Positions 12,535-35,307 of a stretch of 64,000 nucleotides of DNA are shown here, in pieces. Within the stretch, counting starts at the first letter, position 1. Every line of letters starts with the position of its first letter. A program made the position numbers and the translations under genes. The notes beneath the pieces were generated by a model. It was given only the letters and a program-made list of their open reading frames with translations. It searched no databases and had not been told where the DNA came from. The DNA is taken from assembly GCA_963850305.1 (NCBI GenBank), contig CAWKKR010000008.1, forward strand, positions 512,001 to 576,000, written 5' to 3'. This DNA comes from an uncultured delta proteobacterium. GTDB lineage: Bacteria; Myxococcota_A; Polyangia; Polyangiales; Polyangiaceae.

Positions 12535-12845
12535 GGTGCCACGGAGCCGCCGACACCTCGCGACGGGACGAACCAATCCGGGGAGCGGTTGCGGCCCGCA
12601 CCTCCGGGCCGCAGGAATCCCACGACGTTTTCATGTTTCGATGGGAGCGGTTAGACCGACTCGACGCTCGCGGGTCCTCGGAAAACACCGCGAATGCGCA
12701 AGGTTCGTACAGGGCGAGGCGCGGTGTCCCGCTGGACGGGCACGCTCGTCAACGCTGCGCTTCGCGACGCGATGGCCACGAGAACGAAACGCGGGCGTGC
12801 GGGCGGGCGTGCGTAGAAGTTCCATGACCAAGAGAAAAAACTCAC

Positions 12846-12873
12846 AGCGGTGTCACCGCTCGCTTGCTATAAC
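12846..12873 (+). promoter_or_regulatory. Palindrome AGCGGTG-T-CACCGCT followed by an extended -10-like TGcTATAAC upstream of wcaJ
   Basis: Perfect 7-1-7 inverted repeat at 12846-12860; TATAAC about 42 bp upstream of ATG 12915. Confidence 0.45.
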
Positions 12874-12914
12874 GCGGACAGTCAGAACTGTGACCAGACG
12901 GAGAGTAATCGGTA

Positions 12915-14330
12915 ATGCCTGAAACGCCCGATCGGGGGCTTCTACGGACCTACGAGTCGGTAGTCGCGCTGATCCAGCGACTCGCCGATGCCGGCTGGAT
13001 CGTGTTGGCGCAGTACGTCGCGTGCTGGCTCTATCCGGAGGAGTGGAAGCAATCGAACACGGTCGCCGCGCTCGTCGCGATGATCGCGTTCCATCTCGTC
13101 GCCGAGGTCAACGGCCTCTACCGTTCCTGGCGCGGCGCGCCGCTCAAGCACGAGGCGTTTCAAGCCCTGGCGACCTGGACGATCGCCGCGCCCGTCATCC
13201 TCTTCGTCGCGTTCATCACCAAGACCACGACTCAGTACTCGCGTTTCATCACGACCGTCTGGTTCGTCCTCGTCCCGGTCTTCGTGGTCTCGTGGCGGCT
13301 CGCCTTGCGGTTCGCGCTGATGGAGCTCCGTCGTCACGGCCGGAACTCCCGTACGGTCGCCATCGCCGGCCTCACGCCCATGGCTCAGCGCATCGCGCAG
13401 CGGATCGCGGCGGATCCGTACTCGGGGATGAAGATCCTCGGCTTCTACGACGATCGCAAGCCGGGGCGCCGCCACATCTTGCCGGACCTGTACGGCCCGC
13501 TCGTCGGCGATCTCGACCAGCTCGTCATCGACGCGCGGGACAGCAAGATCGATCGCATCTACATCACGTTGCCGCTCAAGGCCGAACCACGCATCAACTC
13601 GATCGTCCGAAAGCTGGCCGACACGACCGCGACCGTCTTCGTCGTGGCCGACTTCCTGGTGTTCGATCTGCTCCACGCCCAGTGGAGCCAGGTGGGTGAC
13701 ATCCCGGTCGTCAGCATCTTCGACACGCCGTTCCACGGCCTCGGCGGCTGGCTCAAGCGGCTCGAGGACATCGCGTTGAGCCTGCTGATTCTGACGATCA
13801 TCGCGATACCGCTCGCGCTCATCTCGATCGGCGTGAAGCTATCTTCCAGGGGCCCGGTGTTCTTCAAGCAGCGCCGCTACGGGCTGAACGGCAAGGAAAT
13901 CCGCGTCCTCAAGTTCCGGAGCATGACCGTCTGCGAAGACGGGCCCGTCGTCACGCAGGCGACCAAGCATGACGAGCGCGTGACGCGATTCGGCGCGTTC
14001 CTCAGACAGACGTCGCTCGACGAGCTCCCGCAGTTTCTCCAGGTGCTCACCGGGGAAATGAGCATCGTCGGCCCGCGTCCGCACGCCGTCGCCCACAACG
14101 AGCTGTATCGCGGCAAGATCCACGGTTACATGCTGCGCCACAAGGTGAAGCCGGGCATCACCGGCTGGGCGCAGGTGAACGGTTGGCGCGGCGAAACCGA
14201 CACCGTCGACAAGATGGAGAAGCGCGTCGAACACGATCTCGAATACATCCGGAATTGGGGACTGATCTGGGATCTGAAGATCATCATGCTGACCGTCTTC
14301 GGCGCAAAAAAGAGCGAGAACGCGTATTAG
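12915..14330 (+). CDS. wcaJ: Undecaprenyl-phosphate glucose phosphotransferase (priming glycosyltransferase)
   Basis: N-terminal TM segments; KRLEDI, GPVFFKQRRYG, KFRSM, SLDELPQ, GPRPHA, KPGITGWAQVNGWRGETD. Confidence 0.93.
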   Translation: MPETPDRGLLRTYESVVALIQRLADAGWIVLAQYVACWLYPEEWKQSNTVAALVAMIAFHLVAEVNGLYRSWRGAPLKHEAFQALATWTIAAPVILFVAFITKTTTQYSRFITTVWFVLVPVFVVSWRLALRFALMELRRHGRNSRTVAIAGLTPMAQRIAQRIAADPYSGMKILGFYDDRKPGRRHILPDLYGPLVGDLDQLVIDARDSKIDRIYITLPLKAEPRINSIVRKLADTTATVFVVADFLVFDLLHAQWSQVGDIPVVSIFDTPFHGLGGWLKRLEDIALSLLILTIIAIPLALISIGVKLSSRGPVFFKQRRYGLNGKEIRVLKFRSMTVCEDGPVVTQATKHDERVTRFGAFLRQTSLDELPQFLQVLTGEMSIVGPRPHAVAHNELYRGKIHGYMLRHKVKPGITGWAQVNGWRGETDTVDKMEKRVEHDLEYIRNWGLIWDLKIIMLTVFGAKKSENAY

Positions 14331-14366
14331 CAGGACCGCCGTCGTCTCCAGCGGGGCTCGGGGGCC

Positions 14367-15065
14367 GTGACTGCCCGGCTGCTCGAAGGTCTCCTCGACC
14401 CGTGCGTGGAAACGGAAGAAGTCGATCCGTTCCGGGATCCGATCGACGAGCTCTTGCCGGAGGAGGCGCATACGATCGCGAATGGTCGCGACGCGCGACT
14501 CCTGGAGTTCCGCGCCGGTCGTCACTGTGCGCGGACGGCGCTTGGGCGGCTCGGGGCACCGGCGGGTCCGCTCCTCAGATCGGAGGATAGATCGCCGATC
14601 TGGCCGGCGGGATTCGTCGGCTCGATCACCCACACGCGCGGCGGCGCTCGCGCCTTCTGCGGCGCGGCCGTCGCGCGTTCGAGCGAGGTGCACGCGCTCG
14701 GAATCGATGCAGAATTCGACACGCCGCTCGAGCGCGCGCTCTTTCGCCGGATCTTGACGGAGGTCGAGCGCGCGTGGATCTCGGACGCAGCGGAGAGCGA
14801 CCAGCCGGTGCTCGCGAAGCGCGTCTTCAGCGCGAAGGAAGCCGTGTACAAGTGTCAGTACCCGCTTTCGCGCACGTTCCTGGAATTCGCCGACGTCGAG
14901 CTCGCGCCGTTCACCGGGACGACCTTCACGGCGATGCTTCGAAAGCGCGCGCCGCCGTTCGGAGAGGGGCACACGTTCACGGGTCGGCAAGCTTTGCGCA
15001 GCGGCCTCGTCGTCAGCGCCGTCGCGATCGCAGCTCGAACGAGCGTCACGTCCGCGGGGCGCTGA
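14367..15065 (+). CDS. 4'-phosphopantetheinyl transferase (EntD/Sfp type)
   Basis: GRHCARTAL, PIWPAGFVGSITH, GIDAE, FSAKEAVYK. Confidence 0.9.
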   Translation: MTARLLEGLLDPCVETEEVDPFRDPIDELLPEEAHTIANGRDARLLEFRAGRHCARTALGRLGAPAGPLLRSEDRSPIWPAGFVGSITHTRGGARAFCGAAVARSSEVHALGIDAEFDTPLERALFRRILTEVERAWISDAAESDQPVLAKRVFSAKEAVYKCQYPLSRTFLEFADVELAPFTGTTFTAMLRKRAPPFGEGHTFTGRQALRSGLVVSAVAIAARTSVTSAGR

Positions 15066-15143
15066 CGACACGCGGGCCGGTCGACACGCTTTGCAGATCC
15101 TCGCGCGCATCCCTACATCCAAGTCTCTAACGGGCTGGGGCCA

Positions 15144-16524
15144 TTGGAGAGCGCCAATCTCGTCGCCTACGTTGCTTTGATCGTGTTCGCGCCGGTCGCC
15201 GTCGCGATCTACGGCGTGGTGCGCCCGACGCTCGCGACGGCCGCCGTACTCCTGGGCGCCGTGATGTATCTGCCCGAGCGAGTGAACTTCGATCCGCCCG
15301 GCCTTCCCCCGTTCGACAAGGCAACGATCGGCGGGCTCGCCGCTCTGGTCGGCAGCGCACTGGTCGCTCGACGAACGCTCACGAGCGCGCGGCCGGGCCG
15401 CGGATTCGATCTGTTCGCCCTGTTGCTCATCGCGGGCACGCTCGGCACCGCGCTCACGAACCCGGACGCATTGACTTATGGGTCGTCGTCGCATCCAGGC
15501 ACTGACTCCCTATGACGCCGTGTCGGACACCATCCGGGACTTGCTTTATCTGGTGTTCCCCTTCTTCCTCGGTCGCGCGCTCTACCGCAGCGCACGGGAT
15601 CTGAGAGATCTCATGGGCGTCGTGGTCATGGGCGCGCTCCTGTATTCGCCCCTGGTGCTCATCGAGCTCTGGCTGAGTCCGCAGCTTCACCGCTGGATCT
15701 ACGGCTTCCATCAGCACGACTTCTCGCAGGTGCTCCGGGACGGCGGATACCGGCCGATGGTCTTCATGGAAAACGGTCTCGCACTGGCACGGCTTCTGCT
15801 GACCGCGGCGCTCTTCGCCGCAACGCTCGCGCGGGCGCGCGAGAAGCTTCCCTTCTCGATCCCTCCGGCGCCGGTCGCCGCCTTTCTGACCGTGCTGTTG
15901 CTCGCGTGTCACAGCATGGGCGCCGCCGTGTACCTCCTCGTCTGTCTGCCCCTCCTGATCCTCGCTCGCCCGCGAGTCCACGTGCGCGTGGGAGCAATGC
16001 TCGCGACCGTCGTGCTCGCTTATCCCGTTCTCCGCGCCGCGGATCTGTTCCCCGTGAAACCCCTGCTCGATGTCTTCGCGAGGTTCAGCCAAGACCGGGC
16101 GGATTCGCTCGCCTTCCGCTTCGACAACGAGGCACAGCTCGTCCAGAAAGCGCTCGAGCGAGTCGTGTTCGGTTGGGGTGGGTTCGCGCGGGCCCACATT
16201 TTCGGGGAGTGGGGGAAGGACATCTCCGTCACGGACGGTCAGTGGATCATCGCCTTCGGAGATACGGGCGCGGTGGGCTTCCTGGGTTTGTTCGGGATGC
16301 TCGTGGGGCCCGTCGTGCTCGCCTGGCGGCGCATCACCGCCATCCCACGCGGGCCGACGCGCGTCCTGGTCGCGGGCATGGCGCTCACGACGGCGCTGAA
16401 CGTCGTGGACCTGTTGCCGAACGGGCTCTACTCGGCCCTGCCGCTCTTTTACGCAGGCGCTCTCGCAGGCGTCACGTGCGCACTTTCGAACGATTACGCG
16501 CTCGAAGGAGGAGTCGCCGAATGA
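15144..16524 (+). CDS. Wzy polymerase / O-antigen ligase-like membrane protein, frameshifted near 15480
   Basis: Two overlapping hydrophobic ORFs (15144-15515, 15478-16524) join if one G is removed at TATGGGTCG; YRPMVF, SLAFRFDNE, FGWGG, TDGQWII; lies in a polysaccharide operon. Confidence 0.7.
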
Positions 16525-17517
16525 GCCGAGTGGGCTGCGTCGTCATCGGTCGAAACGAAGCGTCGCGCCTCGGCCGGTGCCTCGCATCGGTGAAGCCTGA
16601 GTGCGATCGCATCGTCTACGTCGACTCCGCATCCGAGGACGCAAGCGTCGGTGTCGCGGAGCGGATGGGCGTGGAGGCGATCACACTCGACTCGAGCAGT
16701 CGTCTTTCCGCGGCCCGCGGCAGAAACGAAGGGTTTCTACACCTGACACGAACGGCGCCGGAGCTCGAGTTCGTGCAGTTCATCGACGGGGACTCGGAGC
16801 TCTCGCACAGCGTGGATCTCGCACGGGGTGGCGGAACTCGACCGCGACGGGGACGTCGCAGCGGCGTGTGGTCGGATCCGAGAACGGCATCCGCGGGCGT
16901 CCATTTACAACGCCATCAACGACATGGAGTGGGTCCACGGCACCGGAGACGTGGAGTGGTGCGCGGGCACGGCATTGTTCCGCGTCGCGCCGTTCCGGGA
17001 TGCCGAGGGATTCGATCCGACGCTCATCGCCGGTGAAGAGCCGGACCTGTGTGTGCGCCTGCGCGCGCGCGGATTTCGCTTTCGCGCGCTCGATCGGGAG
17101 ATGGCGGTCCACGACGCCGACATGACGCGCTTCTCGGAGTGGTGGACTCGCAACGTCCGTACCGGCCATGCCTACGCGGAAGCCGTCGCCAGGAGACCGG
17201 ACGACCCGGCGATGCACGCCGCCAGTGCCGTCCGGAGTATCGCGATCTGGGGACTCGCGCTGCCGGGGTTCTCCGTCGCGTTGATGCCGCCGACCCTCGG
17301 CGCGAGTCTCCTCGCGCCGTTCACCGCCTACCCGGCGTTGTTCGCCCGCGTGTACCGGACCATGCGCGCGCGCGGCTTTTCCCGCGACGACGCGCTGCTC
17401 TACGCCACGTTCTGCGTCCTGGGAAAGTTCCCGCAAGCGTTCGGACTGCTTCGCTTTCAATGGCTCAAGCGAAAAGGTCAGTCGAGCGATCTCATCGAAT
17501 ACAAGAGGCCCGCATGA
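16521..17517 (+). CDS. Glycosyltransferase family 2, frameshifted near 16805-16812
   Basis: MSRVGCVVIGRNE, VYVDSAS, AARGRN, FIDGD in one frame, continuing as ACGRIRER, GEEPDLC, HDA in the next. Confidence 0.8.
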
Positions 17518-18491
17518 AAGTTTTGGCGATCGTCGTGAACTATCGAACGGCGGAGCGCACGGTCGAAGCGGTCGCGTCGCTCCTCGACGCCCTCACGCAC
17601 CTGGACGGACGCGTGGCCGTCGTCGACAACGACTCGCAGGACGGCTCGCGTGAGCTCCTCGCTCGAACCATCGCGGAACGCGGCTGGAGCTCGCGCGTCG
17701 AACTCCTTTGCTCGCCGGTCAACGGTGGCTTCGGTTATGGCAACAACCTGGCGATCCGCCGGACCTACGACGCGGAGGATGCTCCCGAGTTTTTCTTCAT
17801 GCTGAACCCCGACGCCGTCGCGGAGCCGGACACGATCGCCGCGCTGCTCGAATTCATGGGGGAGACTCCCGACTGCGGCATCGCTGGGAGCCGCATCTTC
17901 GGCTTCGACGGCGAGCGACACGTCTCCGCGTTCCGCTTCCCGAGCCCGCTCGGCGAGCTCGAGGCTGGTCTGAAGCTCGGGCTCGCGACGCGCGTTCTGC
18001 GGCCCTGGGTCGTCGCGCCGCGTCCGCGCCACGCCACGGGAGAGGTCGACTGGGTGGCGGGCGCGAGCTTCATGGTGCGGCGCACGGTGTTCGATCGTGT
18101 CGGCCTCTTCGACGAGAAGTTCTTTCTCTACTTCGAGGAGGTCGATCTCTCTTTGCGGGCGAAGGCGCAAGGCCTCAAGACCTTCTACGTCCACGAAAGT
18201 CGCGTCAGCCACGAAGGGGCCGTGGCGACCGGCTTGAATGACACGAACCAGCCAGTTCCACCGTACTGGTTCGACTCGCGGAAACGGTTTTTCGCGAAGC
18301 ATCACGGCACGACGACCCTTTTGGCGGCAAACGTCTGCTTCACCGTCGGATTTCTTCTCTTTCGAGTACGGCGAAGGATCCAGCAGAAACCCGATCGCGA
18401 CCCGCCCAATCTTCTCTTCGACTTCATCCGGCACAACCTCCCCACACTCCCGGCCGCTCCGCAGGCCGGAGCTGCGGCGCTCGTTCAATGA
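17514..18491 (+). CDS. Glycosyltransferase family 2
   Basis: MKVLAIVVNY, VVDNDS, NGGFGYGNN, LNPD, GASFMVR, FFLYFEEVDL; ATGA overlap with the previous gene. Confidence 0.9.
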   Translation: MKVLAIVVNYRTAERTVEAVASLLDALTHLDGRVAVVDNDSQDGSRELLARTIAERGWSSRVELLCSPVNGGFGYGNNLAIRRTYDAEDAPEFFFMLNPDAVAEPDTIAALLEFMGETPDCGIAGSRIFGFDGERHVSAFRFPSPLGELEAGLKLGLATRVLRPWVVAPRPRHATGEVDWVAGASFMVRRTVFDRVGLFDEKFFLYFEEVDLSLRAKAQGLKTFYVHESRVSHEGAVATGLNDTNQPVPPYWFDSRKRFFAKHHGTTTLLAANVCFTVGFLLFRVRRRIQQKPDRDPPNLLFDFIRHNLPTLPAAPQAGAAALVQ

Positions 18492-19072
18492 ATCGCGCTG
18501 GGCTCATGGTCGTCGCGGCGCTCGCATGTTCGGCCTGCGGAGCGTCCCACCCCTATGTGTGGGTGGATGATCTCCCTCGCTCCGCAACGGCCGAGGTGCC
18601 CCAGATTCGAGCGGGCGATCGACTGTACGTCCTAGTCAAAGGGCAGGATGCGCTGACCGGCGAAGTCCCCGTTCGTCTCGACGGCAACATCGTTCATCCC
18701 GTCTTCGGCGTCGTGGCCGTCGCCGGCACATCGCCTCGCGAGGCAGCGCGACGCATCGAGGCGCGCCTCCGGAACGTCGTACTGGATGCGAACGTCTCGG
18801 TCGCCATCGCGGCGCGCCTTCCATACCAGGTCAGCGTGGTCGGAGAAGTGACGCACCCTGGACCGCTCGAGCTCGAGCCGGGGGAAGGCGTACTGCAGGC
18901 GCTCGCGAGAGCCGGCGGGTTCACCGAGTTCGCGAACAGAAGCGGCATCTACGTCCTTCGCCAGCGCCCCGAGGACGAACGCGTCCGCTTTCGCTACGAC
19001 GATCTCGCGGGCGGCGATGCACGGAGTCTAGGGTTTCGTCTGCACGACGGTGATGTCGTCGTCGTCGAGTAG
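18488..19072 (+). CDS. Short polysaccharide export (OPX/Wza-family) protein
   Basis: Lipoprotein-like signal (LACSAC), IRAGDRL, VRLDGNI, VVGEVTHPG, ALARAGG, LHDGDVVVV; 194 aa with no C-terminal outer-membrane helix. Confidence 0.85.
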   Translation: MNRAGLMVVAALACSACGASHPYVWVDDLPRSATAEVPQIRAGDRLYVLVKGQDALTGEVPVRLDGNIVHPVFGVVAVAGTSPREAARRIEARLRNVVLDANVSVAIAARLPYQVSVVGEVTHPGPLELEPGEGVLQALARAGGFTEFANRSGIYVLRQRPEDERVRFRYDDLAGGDARSLGFRLHDGDVVVVE

Positions 19073-19077
19073 CTATC

Positions 19078-20382
19078 ATGCACTTGGCTCTCGGCGCGCT
19101 CGCTTTCACGCGATTGCTCGGCGCGCTGACCGCGGACGCCGTCGCAGGCGGCCGAACCGAAGTCATGGCCGGCATCGCTCCCGTGCTCCCCGGCGAGTCG
19201 TCCGAGGGCTCCGTCGGCGCGGCGCTCACGCCGTTCGGTGCGCTGCAACTCTCCGAAGAGACGTGGCACCTCGGGCTCAAGTACGCGCCGCGTCTTCTCT
19301 GGCGCGCACCCAACGCCGTCAACGACGGCCGTCCACTGCTGCTGCAGAGCGGCGCGCTCGAACACGAGGCCCTGCTCGGACGTTCGCTCACGCTGACGAC
19401 CGAGGTTCAGGGTAGCGCCGGACGCGTCGACTACAGCATGTACGCCCTTCAGGCGACACCGGGCGGCTCGGTGTCGCCCGCGGGAACCGGCGCTCAACCC
19501 GGGCAGCCTCAGACGACGACACCGGGAACCGCTGCGCCCTCCGCGACGACTGGACAGGCGGGAGTAGCGCCGTCCCAGCTCTCCCTGACGGTCATCGATC
19601 TCTACGACGTGTCGGCGGACACGAAGCTCCAGGCCCACACGGACGCGCGCACGACGCTGACGCTCGGCGCGTCAGGCGGCGACAACGGCCCAATAGGCGC
19701 CGCGAGCGAGAGCTACCCGCGACACACCCGCGCCGCGCTCGAGCCGTCGCTTCGATACCAGCTCTCACCCACCGACAACCTCCGCATGCCGCTCTCGAGC
19801 GAGTACCATCGGGTCAACGGTGTCACCCTCGTGGACGACAGCGCCGAGCTCGAATGGGAGCATCGCTTCCTGCCGCAGACGACACTGCTCCTCGCCGCGG
19901 GCGGCTTGTACGCGAAGCCCCTCGACCCCGCCGGCAACGGCACCTTCTTTCCCTCGGCCGACGCGAGCCTCTCGCACGCCCTCGTGTACGAGCGCGGCTT
20001 GCGGATCCAGGGGACGCTCGATGTCGCTCTTCAGCCGCTCCTGTTCGTGCTCGATGCAGACTTTCGTCCCATCGCGAGCGTGCAAGCGGCGTTCGACATG
20101 ATCGTGCCGCCGCGCCTCCGAGCCGGCCTCCGCGCCTCCTTCTCCACGACGGCCACGGCCAGGCCGTACACACCGGGCGAAGTCGAAACTTACTTCGTCG
20201 CGGAGGCGCCCATCGTCTACGACGTGAGCCCCAACGTCTCGTTCGAGTGCGGCGCGCGGAGCATCTGGAGCGCGCCTCATCTCTCCGAGAGCTTCCAGCT
20301 CGAGAACGCGCAGCTCTGGGGCTACCTCGCGATCACCGCCGTGCTCGGCACGAACGACGATCCGATCGAGATGACGCGGTAA
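19078..20382 (+). CDS. Putative outer-membrane beta-barrel for polysaccharide export (EpsX/Wzp-like)
   Basis: Signal peptide, alternating amphipathic strand pattern, directly downstream of a short OPX gene. Confidence 0.55.
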   Translation: MHLALGALAFTRLLGALTADAVAGGRTEVMAGIAPVLPGESSEGSVGAALTPFGALQLSEETWHLGLKYAPRLLWRAPNAVNDGRPLLLQSGALEHEALLGRSLTLTTEVQGSAGRVDYSMYALQATPGGSVSPAGTGAQPGQPQTTTPGTAAPSATTGQAGVAPSQLSLTVIDLYDVSADTKLQAHTDARTTLTLGASGGDNGPIGAASESYPRHTRAALEPSLRYQLSPTDNLRMPLSSEYHRVNGVTLVDDSAELEWEHRFLPQTTLLLAAGGLYAKPLDPAGNGTFFPSADASLSHALVYERGLRIQGTLDVALQPLLFVLDADFRPIASVQAAFDMIVPPRLRAGLRASFSTTATARPYTPGEVETYFVAEAPIVYDVSPNVSFECGARSIWSAPHLSESFQLENAQLWGYLAITAVLGTNDDPIEMTR

Positions 20383-20734
20383 GAAAGCCTGGGCGGCCTC
20401 GGAGGGCACTACCGCCTTCCACGAGGGCTGGAGGCTTGGGCTGGCGAGCGAAACGCTCGAACCCGATCCCCGGCGGTCCCTCGCGACCGAAGGCGACGAC
20501 ATCCTTGCCCTCCGCCGAGACGGTGGACGTTTGCACACCGGTGCTCGTCGCGCTGCAGGACGAGGCCCGTGGTCCGATGGACGCGCCGCGCCCCTGCCAG
20601 GTGGGGGGCCGCTGCGCAACTCTGGGGTTACGTTGCGATCACCGCCGTGCTCGGCACGAACGACGATCCAATCGAAATGACGCGGTGAGAAGGCCTGGGC
20701 GGCCTCAGAGGGCACTACCGCCTTCCACGAGGGC
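20308..20734 (+). repeat. 121-bp direct repeat (20308-20428 and 20614-20734) duplicating the 3' end of the beta-barrel gene
   Basis: Manual alignment: 112/121 identical, offset 306 bp. Confidence 0.95.
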
Positions 20735-20781
20735 GTGTCGAGGTTGAGGTCGATAGCTGCGACGACTGGCGCGAGCCCGCA

Positions 20782-21212
20782 CGCTCGAGACGTGCCTCTC
20801 GACGCTCGAGACGTGCCTCTCGACGCTCGAGACGTGCCTCTCGACGCTCGAGACGTGCCTCTCGACGCTCGAGACGTGCCTCTCGACGCTCGAGACGTGC
20901 CTCTCGACGCTCGAGACGTGCCTCTCGACGCTCGAGACGTGCCTCTCGACGCTCGAGACGTGCCTCTCGACGCTCGAGACGTGCCTCTCGACGCTCGAGA
21001 CGTGCCTCTCGACGCTCGAGACGTGCCTCTCGACGCTCGAGACGTGCCTCTCGACGCTCGAGACGTGCCTCTCGACGCCGACGGACGCATCCTCGCGCCG
21101 CGTGATGCGCCTCTCGACGCTCGAGACGTGCCTCTCGACGCTCGAGACGTGCCTCTCGACGCCGACGGACGCGCCCTCGCGCCGCGTGAGCTGGCTCTCG
21201 ACGCCGACGGAC
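20782..21212. repeat. 21-bp tandem array (CGCTCGAGACGTGCCTCTCGA): 14 perfect copies, then degenerate and 2 further perfect units
   Basis: 20782-21075 is 14 x 21 bp; 42-bp variant blocks at 21076-21117 and 21160-21201; 2 perfect units at 21118-21159. Confidence 0.97.
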
Positions 21213-21284
21213 CCTATCGTTCCATTCAGGGTCGACGTAGCGCGGAGCGCTTACTCACTCGCGCAATGCGCGGCGCAGCGCGCC

Positions 21285-21620
21285 CTAGGGCACTTGGAAG
21301 TCTTGGCGGACCGTGAGACCGCAGGAGACGTACTCCGCCTCGAGAGGGGGATGCTTGCTCGCTAGATCGCCATCTAGGTCGCAGAAGATGAGCTCCCGCT
21401 CTCCCGCTGAGTAGAGGTCGGTCGCTTTCGAGAGAACCGCTCCCAGGACCATCTCGTCGAACGGCTTGAGGGACTTCACGGTGAAGACTTTCAGCGTCCG
21501 AGCGACTACGGCGGGTGACGGATTTATCCGCTCCATCGCACCTACGGCGGTCTGGACCTGCTGTTCGAGTGTCGAAAGCGCTGTCTTTCGATCGGCGTCG
21601 GCGAGGTCGCTCAGCTCATC
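21285..21620 (-). pseudogene. 3' remnant of a probable PIN-like domain gene
   Basis: Protein-like stretch LKPFDEMVLGAVLSKA...ELIFCDLDGDL ending at a stop; no plausible full-length 5' part or start. Confidence 0.4.
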
Positions 21621-21687
21621 GCGGGTTCGCCGCGAACGGGTCCGGGCATTCGACGACCCTGCCGACGTCTGCGAGCAAGGGCGCGCC

Positions 21688-23466
21688 TCAGAATTCATTT
21701 TCGCGGACGTATCTTCGGAGCTCGACGAACGCGATGAGCAAGGTCGCCAGGAGCAAACCAAGCACCGAGCCAATGCCGGACCGCAAGAAGACGGTCCGGC
21801 GAAGCGGCGGGGTCGTGGGTTCCGTCGGGGACGTGATCTGGTAGCGCGCGGCGGCCAGGGCTTTCTCGAGATCGAGGTCGAGCTCGCTCGCCTTGTAGCG
21901 GGCGAAGAGCTTGGCATGAAGCTCTTTGGTGCCGGCATACGTGCGCGTGAGCTCGGCGTATTGCGCTTCGACGTCCGGGAGTTCGCGAGCGGCTCGGTCG
22001 AGCTCCGCGAGGTCTCCACTCACGCGTGCCAGCTCTCTCGATGCGGCATTCTTCGATACCCGAAGGTCCGCGATGCGATCGTTCAAGGCGCGGAGCGCGG
22101 GATCGGCGCGGCGCTCGGTGTCCGTGATGGCGCCCTGAACGGTTTGCCTGGAGAGCCGTTCGAGTTCCTGCTCTTGCCGTTCGAGATGCTGGACCTCGGG
22201 ATGCTCGTCACCCAGCCCGGAAGCGCGTGCTTGACCGAGCTTCTGCTTCACGTCGACGAGAGCCGTCTCGTAAGGCGCCGCGGCCTCCACCTTGTGCGAG
22301 AAGAGCGGATCGTCGGCCGTGATCTTGTTTCGCTCGGCGGCGAGCGCGAGGGTCGAGCGCTCCACCTCCGCAGCCAGATCCGTCTGACGCGCCTTGAGCG
22401 ACAGGCGCGCCGTGAACTCCTCTTTTGCCTGGTCGGGGAGACCATCGGGGTGTCGCTCCTTGAAGTCCCGGAGCGACGATTCCATCTTCGTGAGCTCGGC
22501 GTCGTTCGTGTCGAGCTGGCCTCTCAGGAACGTCACCTCCGCACTCATCACGTGCAGCGTCTTCTCGACCTCGAACGCGACGAACTCCTTCGACTGCTGC
22601 TCGAGAAAGCGCGTCGCGTCGCGCGTGCTGCGGTCCGTGAACGTCGCGCGGTAGGTCCCGAGTGCGATCCCGTCGAATTGGAGGCGGTTCCGCGCGGAGA
22701 CGACCTCTTCCCGCGTCGGAGGACGCGGCGAGAGAGCGGTCAGCGTGCGACCGATGAGTTCCGGACTCCTGAAATCCATCTCCGCGGCGGAGAAGAACCT
22801 GTCGTCGGACTGTGTCCCGGGGTTGTCGGAGGGTTTCGGAGTGAGCCGGATCTCGAATGCGGCGCGACCTTGCGGCGGTTTCACCCGCACGCTCGCGGCG
22901 CCGGCGAAGCTTGCCGCGAACACACATCCGGCAATCAATGGGTGATACGGGCGAAGGAAACGTCCGCCGCGAATGATGCCGCCCACGACGTCGTGGAGCG
23001 TGAGTCCCTCGTCACCCGCACGAAACTGCAGGTCGCGATTCTGACCCGGGAACTTCGCGAGGGACCGCACGCCCTGGTGCGTGATCGCGTCGATCGGGAC
23101 GTGGGAGATGGCGATCGTCGACGGGCGGCCCGGATCCTCGGGCTGCGAGAGAAAGCTCATCACGGTCTCGCCGACGCGGAGCACGTCACCGGCGCGCAGC
23201 AACCCGTCGGCGGTGACCCGTTCACCGTTCACGAAGGTGCCGTTGGTGGACTTGAGATCGACGACGCGATGCTCCCCGTTCACGAGAATGAGCCTCGCGT
23301 GGCGTTGCGACACCGACGCTTGGTCTAGCCGGATGTCTGCATCTCTCGCACGCCCGATGACATACTCGCCGGGCCTCAGCGGAAATATGGACCCGGGGCG
23401 CGCGCCCGCTAGCACGAGCAGGAACCCGCCGTCGCCGAAGTCCGCACGGTCCGAAAGCGGCCCCAT
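21688..23466 (-). CDS. FHA domain fused to a polysaccharide co-polymerase (Wzc/GumC-like periplasmic coiled coil)
   Basis: FHA motifs IGR, SVSQRH, STNGTFVNG; TM segment; coiled coil with FKERH, GLGDEHPEV, ELPDVEAQYAELTR; Pro-rich motif before C-terminal TM; no BY-kinase domain. Confidence 0.8.
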   Translation of the reverse strand: MGPLSDRADFGDGGFLLVLAGARPGSIFPLRPGEYVIGRARDADIRLDQASVSQRHARLILVNGEHRVVDLKSTNGTFVNGERVTADGLLRAGDVLRVGETVMSFLSQPEDPGRPSTIAISHVPIDAITHQGVRSLAKFPGQNRDLQFRAGDEGLTLHDVVGGIIRGGRFLRPYHPLIAGCVFAASFAGAASVRVKPPQGRAAFEIRLTPKPSDNPGTQSDDRFFSAAEMDFRSPELIGRTLTALSPRPPTREEVVSARNRLQFDGIALGTYRATFTDRSTRDATRFLEQQSKEFVAFEVEKTLHVMSAEVTFLRGQLDTNDAELTKMESSLRDFKERHPDGLPDQAKEEFTARLSLKARQTDLAAEVERSTLALAAERNKITADDPLFSHKVEAAAPYETALVDVKQKLGQARASGLGDEHPEVQHLERQEQELERLSRQTVQGAITDTERRADPALRALNDRIADLRVSKNAASRELARVSGDLAELDRAARELPDVEAQYAELTRTYAGTKELHAKLFARYKASELDLDLEKALAAARYQITSPTEPTTPPLRRTVFLRSGIGSVLGLLLATLLIAFVELRRYVRENEF

Positions 23467-23501
23467 CTACGGTTTCTAAGACTCGTGAGGCCGCGTTGGG
23501 A

Positions 23502-24566
23502 CTAGGCCGTCGCCTGCACCGCGGACGTCACGAGGTCGACCGGCTCCGGCGTCGCGGCGCAGCTGTCGGCGCGAGACGCGAGCGCGCTGCCATCGGCCGT
23601 GCCGCACTGCCCCGCGCTTCCCGTCGCGAGGCGCCGGGCCTCGAGCTCCGGACCGAAGGTCTCCCGCACCCACCGTCCGACGTCGCTCGGAGGCGCCAGG
23701 AGTTCGGCAGACATCGCGACCGCGTGCAAGTCTCGGATCATGTCTTCGGCGGACCGGTACCGAGCCCGGACGTCGTGCTCCAGAGCTCGGAGGCACACCC
23801 CATCCAGACAGCGGGGCGGCGCGAGACCCAAGCTGCTCGGCGCCGGAGCCGGAGTGGTCTGCAGGCGCGCGAGCATGTCTTCGTAGGTCGATGCGTCGAC
23901 GAGTTCCTGACCGGTGAGTGCGTTCCACAGAATGACCCCAGCCCAGAAAACGTCGGACACCAGACCGCCACCGGCGAGCCCGATACGGGACATTCGGCAC
24001 GTGCCGTCGAGTCCAACGAGCAGGTTGCGCGGAGACAGGTCGCGAGAAGGCAGGTCGATGACCCTGGGGGCGTCCCGTACGAGGTGATGGGCCGCGCGGA
24101 GACCGCCGAGCGCGTCGAGGACGATGGGAACGATGAGCCGCGGCGGGCGGTACGTCGGGTGCCGCGACAGGAGGTCGTGGAAGCTGCCCCCGTGGACGTA
24201 GTCCATGACGACGTAAGGCTGCTCCCGGTAAAAGCCGGTATCGACGACGCCGAGGACGCGCGGGTCCGAGATGGTGCCGGCGATTCGCGCTTCTTCGAGG
24301 AGCGCGCGCGCCATCGCGCGGTCGCTCGCGAGGCTCTTTCTGAGCATCTTCAAGGCGAACAGGCGCTCGAATCCACCCTCTCCCCTCGCTCGAACGAGAT
24401 AGACGATGGTGACCGGGCCCCGCGCGATGCGGCCTAGAACCTCGTATCTGCCGAGCGTCTGCACTCCGGCGGCCCCGAGCGAACGTAATGTTGGCTGGTT
24501 GCCGAGAACGGCCCGGTCGTCGGCGTGACCGGTCGGCCCTGCGTCTTCAGTGATGGAGGTGGACAT
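23502..24566 (-). CDS. Degenerate Hanks-type Ser/Thr kinase (pseudokinase)
   Basis: GRYEVL, FALK, EEAR, VVMDYVHG, RDLSPRN present; Gly loop altered, DFG replaced, activation segment and APE missing. Confidence 0.75.
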   Translation of the reverse strand: MSTSITEDAGPTGHADDRAVLGNQPTLRSLGAAGVQTLGRYEVLGRIARGPVTIVYLVRARGEGGFERLFALKMLRKSLASDRAMARALLEEARIAGTISDPRVLGVVDTGFYREQPYVVMDYVHGGSFHDLLSRHPTYRPPRLIVPIVLDALGGLRAAHHLVRDAPRVIDLPSRDLSPRNLLVGLDGTCRMSRIGLAGGGLVSDVFWAGVILWNALTGQELVDASTYEDMLARLQTTPAPAPSSLGLAPPRCLDGVCLRALEHDVRARYRSAEDMIRDLHAVAMSAELLAPPSDVGRWVRETFGPELEARRLATGSAGQCGTADGSALASRADSCAATPEPVDLVTSAVQATA

Positions 24567-25950
24567 TCGGCAAGTACCGATCGAGCCCGATCTTGAGGAC
24601 CAGACCGAGCGCCGCTCCGACGCCGGCCGCGACCGGGGCGATCAATTCGCGCGAGATACGGAGCAGCCCGAAGCGACGGAATGCGAACCAGAACACGACG
24701 AGCATCGGCAGCTCGCTCACGGTCGTTCCCCACAGCACGCCTTTGAGGTGGCCCAGGTACCAACCGAGCGGGATGCCGATCCAGACGGCGATGAACCGTC
24801 CTGCGTTGGCGATCAGGTGAAAGCGCGGATGCCCGAGGGCGATGATGCACACGCCGCACGGATACAAGATGCACTGAAGCCCCACCCGCACGCACAGAAA
24901 CTGGAGCATGTACCCCGCGGCGCGATATCGCGGGTCATACAGGAGGCGAACGACGTTCGGGCCGAGCACGACGAGGGCGCCAAGCGCCGGCATCGCCAGC
25001 AAGTCGAGCTTGAGGCGTGCAGCGTAATAGTGACGCCCGACCTCGGCGGGCCGCTCCCGGACGACTTGACTGAACAGCCCGAAGAAGACGGCGTACGTGA
25101 GCCTGTTCACGACCTGTCCCACCGCCGAGCCGAGCATGCCGGCGACGCTGTAGACACCGAGCGTCGCCATCGTGAGGAAGCGCCCGAGCAGGATCCGGTC
25201 GCCCTCGCCAGCGAGAAAGGTGAAGAGACTCGAGCCGAAGATCCATTTTCCGAAATTGGTGATCGTCCGCGCCGCAGTCTTGTCCCACCGGAATCGATTC
25301 ACGTAGCCAGTGGGCAACAGGTGACTCCCGACGACCTCGAGGACCGATTGCGTCATGCCGCCGGCGATGAGCGCCCACACGGTCGGGGACAGCTTCGCCC
25401 AGACGAACATGACGATCATGGCCGCCACCTTCGACGTGACCTCGACGACGAGAAGCGGACCGCGGCGCACGTGGCGGGCGAGCGTATCGAGCTTCGTCGA
25501 GCCGAACCCGTGGATCACGAGCGCGAACGACGCGACGGTGATCATCGCGAAGAGCCGTGGCTCGTGATAGAGCAACGACACCGGGTACGCGAGCGCGATC
25601 GCCGCGCCCCACAGCATGAATCCACGAATCACCTGGATGGTCCATGCTGTGTTCAGGAAGTCGAGGTCGTCCCCATGCTCGCTGGAGATGATGCTGTCCT
25701 TGAGCCCGACGTCCGTCAGCATGCCCAGCGCGACCATGAACACCGTGACGATCGCCGTCAGCCCGTACGCCGCGGGGAAGAGCAGACGCGACAGGATCAA
25801 GTTCGTCGCCAGACGGAGCCCCTGACTCAGCAGATACCCGATGATCTCGATGACGGAGCCGCGAACGACGAGGCGCCGCAGCCGATTCGAATGCTCCGCG
25901 GTGTCTGCGGCGGCTGCGCGAATCGGGTGAACGACGCCGGTGTCGGTCAT
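24547..25950 (-). CDS. wzx: Wzx oligosaccharide flippase
   Basis: Multi-TM PST family pattern: LSRLLFPAAYGL, DVGL, NTAWT, FGKWIF, DRILLGRF, LGVYS, LLYDPRY. Confidence 0.88.
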   Translation of the reverse strand: MTDTGVVHPIRAAAADTAEHSNRLRRLVVRGSVIEIIGYLLSQGLRLATNLILSRLLFPAAYGLTAIVTVFMVALGMLTDVGLKDSIISSEHGDDLDFLNTAWTIQVIRGFMLWGAAIALAYPVSLLYHEPRLFAMITVASFALVIHGFGSTKLDTLARHVRRGPLLVVEVTSKVAAMIVMFVWAKLSPTVWALIAGGMTQSVLEVVGSHLLPTGYVNRFRWDKTAARTITNFGKWIFGSSLFTFLAGEGDRILLGRFLTMATLGVYSVAGMLGSAVGQVVNRLTYAVFFGLFSQVVRERPAEVGRHYYAARLKLDLLAMPALGALVVLGPNVVRLLYDPRYRAAGYMLQFLCVRVGLQCILYPCGVCIIALGHPRFHLIANAGRFIAVWIGIPLGWYLGHLKGVLWGTTVSELPMLVVFWFAFRRFGLLRISRELIAPVAAGVGAALGLVLKIGLDRYLPNVHLHH

Positions 25951-25953
25951 CGG

Positions 25954-28900
25954 TCACGTCGCGAAGTTCGAAGTACTCGAGCGCTCGACCGTGGGGACAT
26001 CGCCCGGCGGGGCGGCCGCGAACTCGGCGGGCGGAGCGTCGTCGAGATCGGCCCTGGGCGCAAACAGCTTCCGCACGCCGGACCGCGGCACCCGGGCCGT
26101 TGCGAGCACGTTCGAGAGACACGTGGACGTCAGTTCCGCATGTTCTTCGCTCACGAAGCTCGTGTGACCACCGCTCACCTCTACGACGAAGAGTTCGCCC
26201 AGCACCACCGGGCCCCAGCCGTTGCGAGGGTCGAAAATCTTCGTGTCGCGTTCGCGAGACCGAAGCAAGAAGACCGTGCCGGGGTACGGCTGCGGCTCGT
26301 AGCGGCTCTGCATGTCGGTCCACGCTGCCGCCACGGCCTCGTTCCGGAACTCGTACGGAAACCACCGAGACAAGCGCGAAAGCACGGACACTCGCAAATC
26401 CTGCCCGCGACGCAGGAGTCCCTCACCGAACGCCGTCAGCGCGTAGGAGACGCCATCGGACCGAACGCGAGTCGAATGGTATGCGACCCTTTCCGCGAGC
26501 GACCACATGGGGATCTGCGGATTCACGGCATCCAGCAGGACGAGCGCGCCAATCTGCTCGCCGCTCGCTCGAAGCTGCATCGCCATCTCGAGCGCCGCGG
26601 TCCCTCCCCCGGAGAAGCCCCCCAGGAAATAGGGGCCGTGCGGTTGCACCTCGCGCATGTCCTCGATGAACTCGCGAGCCATCTCCTCGACGGAGGTATG
26701 AGGAGCCCGTAGTCCGTCGACGCCGCGATGCTGAAGCCCGTAGAAGGGTTGATCGTCCCCGAGCTTCGCCGCCACCGGGCGGAGATTCATCGGATTGCCG
26801 CCTCGGCCCGCGACGCAGAAGAACGGGGGCAGCGACCCTTCGGGCTTCATCGGCACGACGGTCGACCAGGAACGCGACGCCCGTCCCTCGGCCCGCGTCG
26901 CGACGGTCATCTCCTGTCGAACGCGGACCGCCATCCTTTCGACTGTCGGAGCTTCGAACAGCGCGGACAGCGACAGGCGCACGCCGAACTCCTGGCGAAC
27001 CCGCGAAAGCAACCGGACCCCGAGCAGGGAGTGCCCGCCAAGCGCGAAGAAGTCGTCGGAAAGGCCCACATCGGGAATCTCGAGACTCGTCTGCCAGACA
27101 GCGACGAGTCGCCGTTCGACCTCATCGCGGGGCTCGTGGCGCGGTTCGGCGGACCCGAGGCTCCGGACCGGCGCCGGCAGGGCGTTCCGATCGATCTTGC
27201 CGCTCGGCGTGAGCGGCAGTGCGTCCATTCGCACGAACGCAGCCGGAACCATGTGGATCGGCAAGTACCGCCTCGCGTGTTCGCGGAGCGCGGAGGTATC
27301 GAGCGAGATCCCGGCGCGAGGCACGAGGTAGGCGACAAGTTCGAAGGAGCTGTCAGGCCGCGCGACGACCACGGCCTCCTTCACCGTCCGGTGCCCGGCG
27401 AGCACGGCCTCGATCTCACCGAGCTCGACGCGGTGCCCGCGCACTTTCACCTGATGGTCGTTTCGCCCCAGGTACTCGAACACACCGCCGGCAGCGATCC
27501 GGACGAGGTCGCCGGTTCGATACATCCTTGCGCCGGACACGAATGGGTCATCGAGAAATCGCTCCCGGGTGAGCTCCGGACGCGCGTGGTACCCGCGCGC
27601 CACCGACGGCCCGGCGATGTGGAGCTCACCCGCGGCGCCGATGGGTCTCTGACGGAGCTCCGGATCGAGCACGTAAAATCGCGTGTTCGCGATCGGACGC
27701 CCGATCGGCACGGGCCCCGGCTGGGCCTGGACAGCATGTGCGCTCGACCAGACGGTAGTCTCCGTGGGGCCGTACGCGTTCACGATCTGTCCTCGAATGA
27801 CCTTCGAGAGCTCCAGAACGAGCGTCTCGGAGAGCGCCTCGCCGGCGAGAATCAGCTGCCGGAGTCGACCGAGCGCGCTGCGCGTTTCCGGATCCTCGAT
27901 GAGCGTCGCGATCTGCGAAGGCGTACACTGAAAATGGGTTATGCCGAAACGTTCGATGAGTCTCGCGATCCCGAAGTCGGACCGACGCGCGTCGCCGAGC
28001 AGCTGATCTCCGAGCAGGACCACCGTGAGCCCGTGGGTGAGCGAACCGAGGATCTCGAGCACGCTGATGTCGAACGACACGCTCGTGCCGGCAAGCCAGA
28101 CGCCGTGGTCACGGAGATCGACGATGTCCTCCATGCCCCGAAAGAACGCGATGACGTTCCGGTGCTCGACCAGCACTCCTTTGGGTTTGCCCGTGGAGCC
28201 CGAGGTGTAGATGGAATAAGCGAGCTGATCCGGCGCTCCCGGTACGTCGAGAGGCTCCGCACTCTCGCGCAAGATGCTCGCCCGTGTGTGGTCGTCGTCG
28301 AGCACGAGCCGCTCCACGGGAGACTCGACGAGATCCATCGTCGAGGTCTCCGCGACGAGAAAGCGCGCCCCCGAGTCGGCGAGCATGAAGGACAGTCGCT
28401 CGCGCGGGTACGATGGATCGAGCGGGAGGTATCCACCGCCGGCGGTATGGACGGCAAGGAGCGCAACGACGAGGTCGAGCGATCTGTGCAGACAGACGCC
28501 GACCGGCGCGTCTCGCTTCACCCCCAGGGACCGGAGCGCACGAGCCAGCCTGTTCACCCGCACCCGCAGCTCTCGGTAAGTGACGCTGTGGCCCTCGAAC
28601 CAGACCGCGATCTTCTCCGGCCTCCGATCGACCTGCTTCTCGAAGAAGTGATGCACCAGAGCGTCCCGGGCAAGCGGTGGCTGCGCCGCGTTCCACTCGA
28701 GAAGCTCGGCACGCTGCGCGTACAGACCGTCGAGATCCCCGATGCGCGTCTCCGGCGCGGTGGCGACCTCGGAAAGGAGCTCTTGAAAGCACGCGACGAA
28801 GCGCCGGGCCGTCGCTTCCTCGAACAGATCGAGCGCGTACTCGAGGGCCCCAGAAACGGTCGCACCGTCATCGCGAACGTAGAGCGCCAGATCGGTGAGC

Positions 28901-31900
28901 GAACTCCCCGCATGGACCTCGACTTCCCGAAGGTCGAGGCCGGAAGCGATCGGGGTCACCTGGCGAAACGCGAAGAAAACCTGAAAGAGCGGCGTCCGGC
29001 TGCGGTCGCGCACCGGTCGGAGCGCCTCCACTACTTGCTCGAAGGGGATTCTTCGATGCTCGTACGCGCCGATACACGTCTCGCGCACGGCGGCGAGGAG
29101 CACCGGAAACGGCGCCGTATCGTCCAGCTTCGTGCGGAGGACCAGGGTGTTCACGAAGAGGCCGATCGCGTCCTTCAACTCGGGTCGAACGCGCTCGTCG
29201 ATCGCCGTCCCCACGACGAGGTCCCGCTCGCCCGTGTACCGGTACAGAGCGACGTTCAGCACGGCGAGCAGAACCATCTGGAGGGTGGTGCCTTCCGTTT
29301 TACCGAGATCCCGCAGGCGGGAGAGAACGTCCGCGGGAACTGCGAACGGCACGACGCTGCCGCGATAGCTCATCTGCGCAGGTCGCCTTCCGTCGAGCGG
29401 CAGCTCCAGGTTCGCGGGGATGCCTTCGAGGTTCCGGATCCAGTAGTCGAGCTCTCGCCTTCGCGTTGCGTCGTCGCGCGACGAGAGCTCCCACTCGACG
29501 TAATCGGCGTAGCTGACCTGCACGGGCGGCAGCGGGGATTCGCCTCCCTTCGCAAAGGCGTCGTAAAGCACCCGAAACTCGCGCTCGAACAGCTCGAAGG
29601 AAACGCCGTCCCAGATCAGGTGGCTCGCGACGAACCAGAGCACCTTATCTCCCTCGGCTAGTGTCGCGATGCCGGCGCGCCACGCCGGACCGTGTTCGGG
29701 GTCGAGCGGGCGAGCCAACCACGGAAAGAGCCGCTCTTCGATCGGAGGCTCGCGACCGGGCCACGAAGAGAGATCGTCGAGCTCCAGGTTCACCTCGATC
29801 GAATCGTGAGCGAGCTGCTTCGGCCCGGTATCGTCTTGAACGATCGACGTCCGCAAGACATCGTGTCGCCGGACGATCTCGCCGAGCACGCGTCGCGCGA
29901 TCTCTACGTCGAATTCACCGCGGATCCTGAACGCGCAGGGGAGGTTCAAGAAAGACGTACCGGGAAGCAACGCGTCCATGAACCACAGGCGCTGCTGTGA
30001 GGGCGACAGCGCAGCGGGACCCGCGTGCGTCCTCGGAATGATGGGATTCTCGGCAGATGGCTGAACACTTCCCTGCTCGACGTATCTGGCAAGGGCCTCT
30101 ACGGTCGGTTTACGAAAGAACCGCGCGAGCCCGACGTCGACACCCGAGGACTCGCCGACTCGGGCGAGCATGCGCGCCGCAAGCATGGAGTGTCCCCCCA
30201 TGGCAAAGAAGTCCTCGTCCACCCCGACGCGCTCGACCCCGAACAGTGTGCTCCAGATTCCGGCGACGATTCGCTCCGATTCACTCCGCGGGAGCACACG
30301 CTCCCGCGCCGACTCACCGGATGCGTCCGGCAGTGGCAAGCCGTTCCGATCGATCTTCTGGTTTGGCGTGCGAGGAAGCTCGGAAAGCACGACGAAGTGC
30401 TGCGGGATCATGTAACCAGGCAGGCTTTGCTCGACTCGCGCCCGAAGCTCGGGTGGCTTGACGGGACCGGAACTCGCCACGTATGCGACGATCCTTCGAT
30501 CGCCTGGAACGTCCTCGCGCACCACGACCGTGCACTCGCGAACGCGAGGGTCTTCGGCGATCACGCTCTCGATCTCGCCGAGCTCGATCCGGTAGCCGCG
30601 CACTTTGACTTGATTGTCGGCGCGCCGCGAGAAGAGCAGCGTGCCGTCTCGACGCCAGTGAACCAGGTCACCGGTTCGATAAAACACGCCGCTACCGATA
30701 TCGGCCCTCGAGATCGTGATGAAACGTTCTCGGGTGAGCTCCGGACGACCTAGATAACCGCGCGCGACGCCTTCGCCACCGATGTAGAGCTCGCCGAGCA
30801 CCCCGACGGGAACCCTCTCGCGGCGCTCATCGAGAACCAGAAGACGAGTGCCGGCGATCGGTCGTCCGATCGGCACCGAGCCTGGGACGTTTTCGACGCG
30901 ATGGCACGTCGACCATACGGTGGCCTCGGTCGGCCCGTACATGTTCCAGACGCTCCCGCACCTCTCGACCATGGCGAGCGCGAGCTCTCGAGGGAGGGTC
31001 TCGCCCCCGATGAGTGCCTTGAAGCGCGCGCCGAAGGGGAAGCGGGCCTCGACGAGCAACCGGAAGGTCGACGGGGTGGCTTGCAGGAATGTCACGCCAA
31101 ACCGAACGAGCAGTTCCGCGAGCGCACGCCCGTCCATGCCGACCTCGCGCGGGATCACGACCACCTGGGCCCCGACGGTGAGGGGCAAGAACAGTTCGAG
31201 CACGGAAATGTCGAATGACAGCGTCGTCACGGCGCCGACGACGTCGTCCGGCGAAAGCCCGGGTTCGCGCGCCATCGCGGCGAGGAAATTCGCGATGGAG
31301 CCGTTCGCGACGAGTACACCCTTGGGTTTGCCCGTCGATCCGGACGTGTGGAGCACGTAGGCGATCTGCTCCGCGTCGTCTTCGCGGGGTGGCCGTTCGG
31401 ACGAGCATGCAGCGATCCGGTCGGCGTGCGCATCGAGAACGACGCGCGTCTCGACTTGCAGAGGCGTGTCGTCGAGCGACGCTTCGGTCACGAGCGCGCT
31501 AAGCCCCGCATCGTTCGCGATGAACGCGAGGCGCGACGCGGGAAACTCCGGATCGAGCGGCACGTAGGTTGCTCCGGCCTTCAGCACGCCGAGCAACGCC
31601 ACGAGGAGCTCCGTTCCGCGACCGAGCGAGATACCGACGCGGTCCGCCGGTTTCACGCCGAGGGCGACGAGATGCCGGGCGAGGCGATTTGCTCGCTCGT
31701 CGAGCTCGCGATACGTGACCGCGGCGGTGAGAGAACGCGCGGCAACGGCATCCGGCGTCCGGCTCGCCTGTGCCTCGAAGAGCCCGGCGATCGTCCTCAC
31801 GGGCGGAGATCCGGGCGCGGCAGTTTCCCACGATTCGAGGAGCGAACACTCGCGAGGGGGAATCAGGGGCAGCTCACCCAGACGTTGAGACGAGTCACGA

Positions 31901-35297: not shown

Positions 35298-35307
35298 TCG
35301 AGGTACC

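Follow-up and report, generated by a model that had tools for sequence, protein, structure and literature searches.

An FHA-fused polysaccharide co-polymerase beside a Hanks-type kinase gene in a predicted Wzx/Wzy cluster of a myxobacterium

We analyzed a 64,000-nucleotide stretch of DNA (the window) from an uncultured soil member of the Polyangiaceae (assembly GCA_963850305.1, contig CAWKKR010000008.1, positions 512,001–576,000), whose 6.26-Mb genome has 66% GC and is 94.8% complete. Its genes resembling epsV and epsY and its complement of about 90 Hanks kinases point to a myxobacterium. On the minus strand, at 21688..23466, the window encodes a 592-residue polysaccharide co-polymerase (PCP) that carries an FHA domain and no bacterial tyrosine kinase (BY-kinase), as judged from Pfam, hydrophobicity, profile searches and an AlphaFold2 (AF2) model; we refer to it as FHA-PCP. 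The gene 35 bp upstream (23502..24566, minus strand) encodes a 354-residue Hanks-type pseudokinase, recognized from a Pkinase match, alignment to relatives and a modelled fold. The gene set around FHA-PCP forms a predicted Wzx/Wzy polysaccharide cluster with an outer-membrane polysaccharide export (OPX) protein. In most relatives of FHA-PCP an intact-looking Ser/Thr kinase is conserved at its side, and sequence comparison suggests that this pair is likely an undescribed phosphothreonine (pThr) switch.

The FHA-bearing co-polymerase and its cluster

FHA-PCP is laid out as an FHA domain, a linker of ∼65 residues, a first transmembrane segment (TM1), a long helical periplasmic domain, a second transmembrane segment (TM2) and a tail of ∼10 residues, with hydrophobic peaks at residues ∼175–196 (1.73) and 558–587 (2.35). 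The FHA domain (residues 35–99; 23170..23364, minus strand; Pfam E 1e-18) keeps R39, S53, H56 and N75, and the motifs G38-R39, S53-x-x-H56 and N75-G76 were invariant in 35/35 aligned family members. This GR, SxxH and NG pocket, together with the beta-sandwich fold, identifies it as an FHA domain. The protein stops ∼10 residues past TM2, and we found no Walker-type domain after that segment and no BY-kinase profile match in window positions 11001–31000.

A single FHA-PCP sequence gave no Pfam PCP match. A profile built from 27 bodies without the FHA domain matched PslE (E 2e-11, profile positions 85–430) and Wzc (E 8.5e-9), and all 27 bodies matched the TIGR03007 chain-length determinant, under its cut-off. 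The weak matches of the body within the host genome fell mainly on Wzc proteins to which a BY-kinase is fused. The AF2 model (pLDDT 85, pTM 0.48 for the monomer) consisted of the FHA domain, a disordered linker, TM1, a beta/alpha base, long helices and TM2; a fold search with it retrieved FHA structures (GarA/OdhI) at about 1 Å; for Wzc chains the E-value was 1.5e-8 and the TM-score low, at 0.25–0.30. With two transmembrane segments around a large helical, Wzz/Wzc-homologous periplasmic domain, and a Wzx/Wzy cluster with an OPX protein around its gene, FHA-PCP belongs to the PCP superfamily. We regard this assignment as sound by homology; the protein is accordingly predicted to control polysaccharide chain growth and export. 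The initial annotation had described a Wzc-like protein with an intact FHA pocket, no C-terminal Walker-type tyrosine kinase, no BY-kinase gene in the cluster and a Hanks-type kinase homologue directly upstream, and these results agree with it on each count.

FHA-PCP departs from the described PCP subtypes. It carries neither the fused Walker A/A'/B BY-kinase nor the Tyr tail of PCP-2a (Wzc), and it lacks the C-terminal extension for a stand-alone BY (pseudo)kinase that marks PCP-2b (CapA/CapB) and EpsV/EcpK. The EpsV model NF041864 (curated cut-off 800 bits) did not match FHA-PCP in the genome search; the best family match reached E 5e-6, and 7 of the 27 rows gave matches. On contig C5 the same genome encodes a Wzc whose BY-kinase (Walker A, Tyr tail) is part of the protein; located in a separate cluster and already joined to a PCP, this kinase is an unlikely partner for FHA-PCP.

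Initial locus searches, dominated by generic FHA matches, returned 1 full-length match among 80 each. Of the 383 genomes in the host's taxonomic family, 42, spread over 8 of 89 genera, yielded a match to the FHA-PCP body; the six further genomes of the host's own genus gave none. Across the order it was found in 25/401 genomes, every one in that taxonomic family, and across the phylum in 4/401, two of which belong to another taxonomic family. A wider set of representatives (the best 150 at 50% clustering, with some overlap with the aligned profile set) yielded an FHA domain in 104 of the 109 having an N-terminal extension, no BY-kinase profile match (0/150) and no [LIV]P[VLI]LG docking motif (0/150), and the motif was likewise absent from 35 inspected tails. 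Three members of the PCP family, P0143, P0167 and P0173, have an OPX-like domain fused past TM2 via a further hydrophobic segment; P0173, with the order FHA-PCP-OPX, is a natural fusion of co-polymerase and export protein.

On the minus strand of the cluster, nonribosomal peptide synthetase/polyketide synthase (NRPS/PKS) genes and a wzx gene accompany the kinase-like and FHA-PCP genes. The Wzx flippase (24547..25950; Polysacc_synt_3 E 1e-46) ends within the start of the pseudokinase gene, the two sharing 20 overlapping bases. The plus strand carries an initiating phosphoglycosyl transferase of WcaJ type (12915..14330; TIGR03023, over cut-off), a phosphopantetheinyl transferase (PPTase), a Wzy-like polymerase gene (15144..16524; Wzy_C E 7e-5, a weak match under cut-off), two GT2 glycosyltransferase genes (16521..18491; Pfam scan), a short D1D2 OPX export protein resembling EpsY (18488..19072; Poly_export and SLBB; NF041843 EpsY at 158 bits, under cut-off) and a putative outer-membrane beta-barrel (19078..20382). 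The barrel has no family match and is presumed from its position to be the OPX partner; homologues at 22–27% identity directly follow OPX in related loci. In M. xanthus, a short OPX and a barrel together make up a composite translocon (available text of 10.1101/2022.04.04.486985). The Wzy-like gene lies in two frames, probably through an assembly indel, and both pieces align to a single open reading frame (ORF) in loci L179, L213, L214 and L260; the first glycosyltransferase gene (16521–17517) is also in two frames. Because the wzc gene on C5 (C5:265700-267890) likewise reads as two frames, probably for the same reason, the split wzy and glycosyltransferase genes look like assembly indels.

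NRPS/PKS modules with an aminotransferase (window 25954–39942, minus strand) and the PPTase (14367–15065, plus strand) are embedded in the polysaccharide cluster, and the same functions recur in the clusters of L081, L214, L215, L230 and L292 and at C8:1713258-1719728 in the host genome; they possibly add an acyl or peptidyl decoration to the polymer. In another FHA-PCP cluster, L180:8957-12846 (minus strand), inspection of the sequence pointed to an exosortase-like/CAAX-type membrane protein and a TPR protein. Between the converging operons of the window lies a 21-base unit repeated 18 times (93% matches; 20781–21162), and the final 24 codons of the barrel gene recur as a duplicate near 20614–20685. 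For a minus-strand ORF at 21285–21698, which overlaps the FHA-PCP stop codon, we weighed two identities, BY-kinase remnant and STAS-like partner, and rejected both; it is a 5'-truncated remnant that encodes the final ∼111 residues of a 197-residue PIN-like (DUF4935-type) protein, with 91% identity to a full-length relative, and we found no counterpart in the compared flanks of related loci.

The neighboring kinase and its relatives

The Pkinase match in the window protein was limited to residues 41–198. Its closest relative, P0068 (53% identity), is itself intact, and alignment of the two revealed G51P and M52V in the Gly loop, H174S, replacement of DFG by RIG, and a 29-residue deletion, between V203 and S204, that removes the activation segment and APE; K73, E92, D176 and N181 are retained. 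With Arg in place of the DFG Asp, the His lost and APE deleted, the protein is not an active Hanks kinase by motif, and it is a pseudokinase by the usual triad definition as worded in the available text of 10.1101/2025.01.12.632604. It lacks the relatives' N-terminal DUF4388-like domain and C-terminal transmembrane segment, ends in T347-S-A-V and is modelled as a kinase fold (pTM 0.87). Short-read contigs, which came from one study and possibly from the same material as the assembly, showed 0 differences over the Gly loop (24341–24491) and over the catalytic loop and deletion (23920–24070); long-read errors as the source of these lesions were thereby ruled out.

We compared 50 FHA-PCP loci including the window, 43 of them informative in having at least 2.5 kb upstream, with a locus fetched twice counted once. 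A cognate-type kinase was found in 32 of the 43, in 30 of these within 2.5 kb upstream, and was co-directional or divergent. Among the 37 cognate-type kinases other than the window copy, 34 keep K, E, H, D, N, the DFG Asp and the APE Glu; two of the remaining three are cut at contig ends and one has D changed to N. By sequence motifs, then, the relatives are active Hanks kinases. They are non-RD kinases, usually with a DUF4388-like N terminus, and a C-terminal transmembrane segment was present in 33 of the 34 checked. With catalytic loss confined to the window copy and P0068 intact, this is not a conserved pseudokinase family of the ActPs3/MviN type; rather, comparison with these relatives indicates that the loss of catalysis and of membrane anchoring in this genome's copy is derived.

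A quick tree that included all of the genome's Hanks-type kinases, about 90 (the window copy and 89 others), placed 21 neighbor kinases, the window copy and P0068 in one clade (SH-aLRT 99). None of the other 89 fell inside it, and three other nearby kinases lay outside. Distances between PCPs correlated with distances between their kinases (r 0.82, 32 pairs, leaving out L232, L234, L230, L213, L265 and one L179 paralogue); this is evidence of co-inheritance but not of interaction. At L179:9420-14594 (minus strand) a tandem pair of cognate kinases stands upstream of a single FHA-PCP gene. Four same-genus genomes contain kinases that match at E 1e-86, which we rejected as cognate orthologues because they are of RD type, fall outside the clade and have no match to a polysaccharide gene in their vicinity. 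Genome co-occurrence at 1e-85 (35 of 41 PCP genomes with a kinase; 35 of 51 in reverse) was not used as support, because that cut-off admits kinases from outside the clade.

The initial annotation had coupled the co-polymerase to a Ser/Thr pseudokinase and advised an architecture search and a neighbor analysis. The FHA domains of the extended representatives and the kinases of the informative loci answer both in its favor, and conserved adjacency, a single kinase clade and the candidate pThr sites described below argue for the functional link. Catalytic degeneracy was correctly read for the window copy; as a description of the family's partner it does not hold, since nearly all of the other kinases retain all seven residues.

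Candidate phosphothreonine sites and proposed control of the pathway

Ten residues past the FHA domain lies T117-I-A-I120 (23107..23118, minus strand), a candidate self-ligand phosphosite singled out by motif conservation, and T117 is among the few near-invariant columns outside the FHA domain. FHA domains often read the +3 residue (available text of PMC6733907). A T-x-x-[ILVM] motif within 18 residues past the FHA domain occurred in 33/35 members, as compared with 7/35 and 5/35 in control windows, a mean of 7.0 and a maximum of 15 (of 35) after shuffling, and 3/35 other FHA domains of this genome. It was present in 20/20 held-out loci, fetched after the pattern had been fixed, and in 75/106 wider representatives versus 14/106 in the next window. 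The same motif preceded the kinase transmembrane segment in 26/33 relatives versus a control count of 11/33 (shuffle mean 6.1; 13/44 other membrane-anchored kinases; L232, L234, L265 and the window copy left out).

We lean towards the reading that in FHA-PCPs of the predicted Wzx/Wzy pathway, pThr/FHA docking replaces BY-kinase cycling and the co-polymerase is switched by threonine phosphorylation. In the relatives, the membrane-bound non-RD kinase would autophosphorylate its juxtamembrane Thr and thereby recruit the FHA domain; the recruited kinase would then phosphorylate the linker Thr (T117 in the window protein), and the FHA domain would bind pT117, probably in trans around the ring. On structural reasoning, ten residues are probably too few for pT117 to fold back into the binding pocket, which lies at the opposite end of the FHA domain, so binding would be to a neighboring PCP protomer. 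Such binding between protomers would set the assembly state of the PCP ring, comparable with the Tyr tail in Wzc. The window kinase would be incapable of the second step, and the phosphate would have to come from some other Hanks kinase, of which the genome has about 89; the pseudokinase would be left as at most an adaptor or damper. We offer tentatively, and with more doubt than confidence, a fuller proposal: a Ser/Thr kinase writes the linker pThr on each protomer and the neighbor's FHA domain reads it, giving a fourth logic of Wzx/Wzy control, in which a dead writer serves as a scaffold and places the pathway in a wider kinase network.

Several observations weigh against pThr/FHA docking. 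No cognate-type kinase was present in the fetched span of 11 of the 43 informative loci, and only distant kinases were found in three genomes checked; an intact clade kinase was not found in the present genome, at its 94.8% completeness. Conversely, four genomes (83–95% complete) have clade kinases with no FHA-PCP found, and the clade is therefore not exclusive to an FHA-PCP role. The linker motif is missing in 31/106 wider representatives, and its position is Ala in the close relative P0003. The motif was picked by eye after the data had been seen, and all loci are kin. Finally, two degenerate BY-like membrane proteins are encoded in L260 and one near L214.

An unlikely alternative, and the model of the initial annotation, is that the pseudokinase is itself the FHA ligand, its T347-S-A-V tail being phosphorylated by another kinase and docking on the PCP as a scaffold. 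The losses in the pseudokinase do cluster in the active site (6/15 conserved active-site columns versus 6/59 elsewhere, p 0.012, with the deletion excluded from the count and the active-site region set by the analyst), its GC content at third codon positions (GC3, 0.81) is similar to that of the adjoining genes, its kinase fold is confidently modelled, and the MviN pseudokinase, likewise with an activation-loop deletion, offers a precedent (available text of PMC12599244). Against this, the pseudo state is limited among the 38 kinases to the window copy and perhaps L238 (D to N), T347 is not alignable with the relatives' juxtamembrane Thr, and T117 is kept, so that a candidate self-ligand remains.

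Equally unlikely, in our estimation, is that the kinase gene is a decaying relic, with the PCP operating in the manner of kinase-free PCPs and independently of phosphorylation, or with the pathway fading. The branch leading to the window pseudokinase is long (0.53 versus 0.16 for P0068), the transmembrane segment and N-terminal domain have been lost, the PCP is absent from the six same-genus genomes, and the sequence immediately downstream contains an unrelated, truncated gene as well as a repeat array. The open frame alone is no proof of selection, because a neutral simulation of point changes gave a probability of 0.08–0.26 of acquiring no stop codon; that simulation, however, ignored frameshifting indels. 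The FHA pocket and T117 are intact, moreover, the kinase losses are not random, and the split wzy and glycosyltransferase genes look like artifacts of assembly rather than decay.

Less probable still is a BY pseudokinase of EcpK/HfsB type that drives the PCP cycle in trans, with the FHA domain an add-on for localization or tuning. In M. xanthus, ecpK is not adjacent to epsV (available text of PMC12004946). The present genome holds on contig C8 an EcpK-like gene (C8:1728899-1729423), so labelled from context, size and appearance rather than a family match, and a second degenerate BY-like domain (C8:1731913-1732473). BY-like genes also flank L260 and L214, and in genome G353 a clade kinase is fused to such a domain. 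EcpK, however, binds a 25-residue EpsV tail (same source), and the FHA-PCP tail has ∼10 residues. The genome's own EpsV-like protein has such a tail, with the docking motif, and its gene lies 3.6 kb from the EcpK-like gene in a cluster of their own; FHA-PCP family members lack the motif, and a BY-like match occurred in just 1 of the 50 loci.

The BY-like proteins have features of their own. The G353 fusion (L284:7491-10529, minus strand) has no transmembrane segment and carries the degenerate BY-like domain at its C terminus; no FHA-PCP was found in G353. At L260:1-1761 (minus strand), L260:4297-5883 (plus strand), L239:18546-19598 (minus strand) and C8:1729741-1732473 (plus strand), proteins containing a Pro-rich stretch end in a BY-like domain without the Walker A lysine motif, and those of L260, which have transmembrane segments, resemble a miniature degenerate Wzc.

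It is very improbable that Wzx and the pseudokinase are a single MviN-like fusion, split by a one-base assembly error, that docks on the FHA domain of the PCP: the frames overlap, the kinase frame stays open upstream of its ATG for 24 codons, further probable indels occur in the assembly and a fusion would account for the missing kinase transmembrane segment, but Wzx ends at about the same place as in two homologues and no such fusion was seen in the other loci, while the short-read contigs do not span the junction and are neutral either way.

How co-polymerases link phosphorylation to chain length and export has been studied almost solely via BY-kinases. At least 100 sequence clusters appear to swap the BY module for an FHA domain and a Hanks kinase, an independent test of phosphate as an on/off latch for ring assembly, and R39, S53 and T117 are named residues that bear on this idea. 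If pThr/FHA docking is correct, the large myxobacterial Ser/Thr kinase repertoire would be tied directly to polysaccharide secretion, and the ring switch of the fuller proposal would amount to convergence, by unrelated parts, on the Tyr-tail cycle of Wzc. The inactive kinase of this genome, a natural variant, would allow catalytic and scaffold roles to be compared.

Comparison with known systems

We found no description of an FHA-fused co-polymerase in the full-text literature, in a search that did not cover the supplementary cluster tables of PMC12004946 and of the OPX papers. Among solved structures, the best sequence match of the PCP body was PslE of Pseudomonas (PDB 9v75; E 2e-11), restricted to the periplasmic body and TM2. 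With Wzc of E. coli (PCP-2a; PDB 7nhr, 9r62, 9r68), FHA-PCP shares the two-segment co-polymerase plan, a homologous periplasmic domain and a Wzx/Wzy/OPX cluster; it differs in lacking the C-terminal BY-kinase and Tyr tail and in having an N-terminal FHA domain, a Hanks-type neighbor and a short D1D2 OPX.

EpsV/EcpK of M. xanthus and HfsA/HfsB of Caulobacter, as presented in the available text of PMC12004946, likewise consist of a PCP without a BY-kinase domain and a proposed pseudokinase partner, and the former is also myxobacterial with a D1D2 OPX and barrel. EcpK, however, is a BY pseudokinase of P-loop fold that binds the 25-residue C-terminal tail independently of phosphorylation (same text), whereas FHA-PCP has no such tail, its putative partner, of Hanks fold, has stayed intact in most relatives, and a separate EpsV/EcpK-like pair exists elsewhere in the genome.

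Three FHA systems offer parallels to the putative switch. According to the available text of PMC12599244, the mycobacterial MviN pseudokinase and FhaA (PDB 3oun) combine an activation-loop deletion with docking of an FHA domain on a pThr tail, and they regulate a glycan pathway. That pseudokinase forms one protein with the flippase, is conserved throughout its family and is bound by a soluble FhaA, whereas the FHA domain in the window sits on the co-polymerase. DgcB of Bdellovibrio and GarA/OdhI are FHA switches that bind a pThr on their own polypeptide, and DgcB binds its pT14 tail with the +3 residue as a determinant (available text of PMC6733907). Those proteins are soluble with the Thr on an N-terminal tail, unlike the candidate site ten residues past the FHA domain in FHA-PCP. 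In Mycobacterium, the membrane Ser/Thr kinase PknF phosphorylates linker Thr residues of Rv1747, an FHA-bearing membrane transporter (the FHA being N-terminal) from its own operon, and this phosphorylation is linked to oligomerization (available text of PMC8339232). Rv1747 is an ABC transporter with two FHA domains, and its phosphorylation was shown experimentally; the FHA-PCP and its neighboring kinase would be a predicted counterpart on a polysaccharide co-polymerase.

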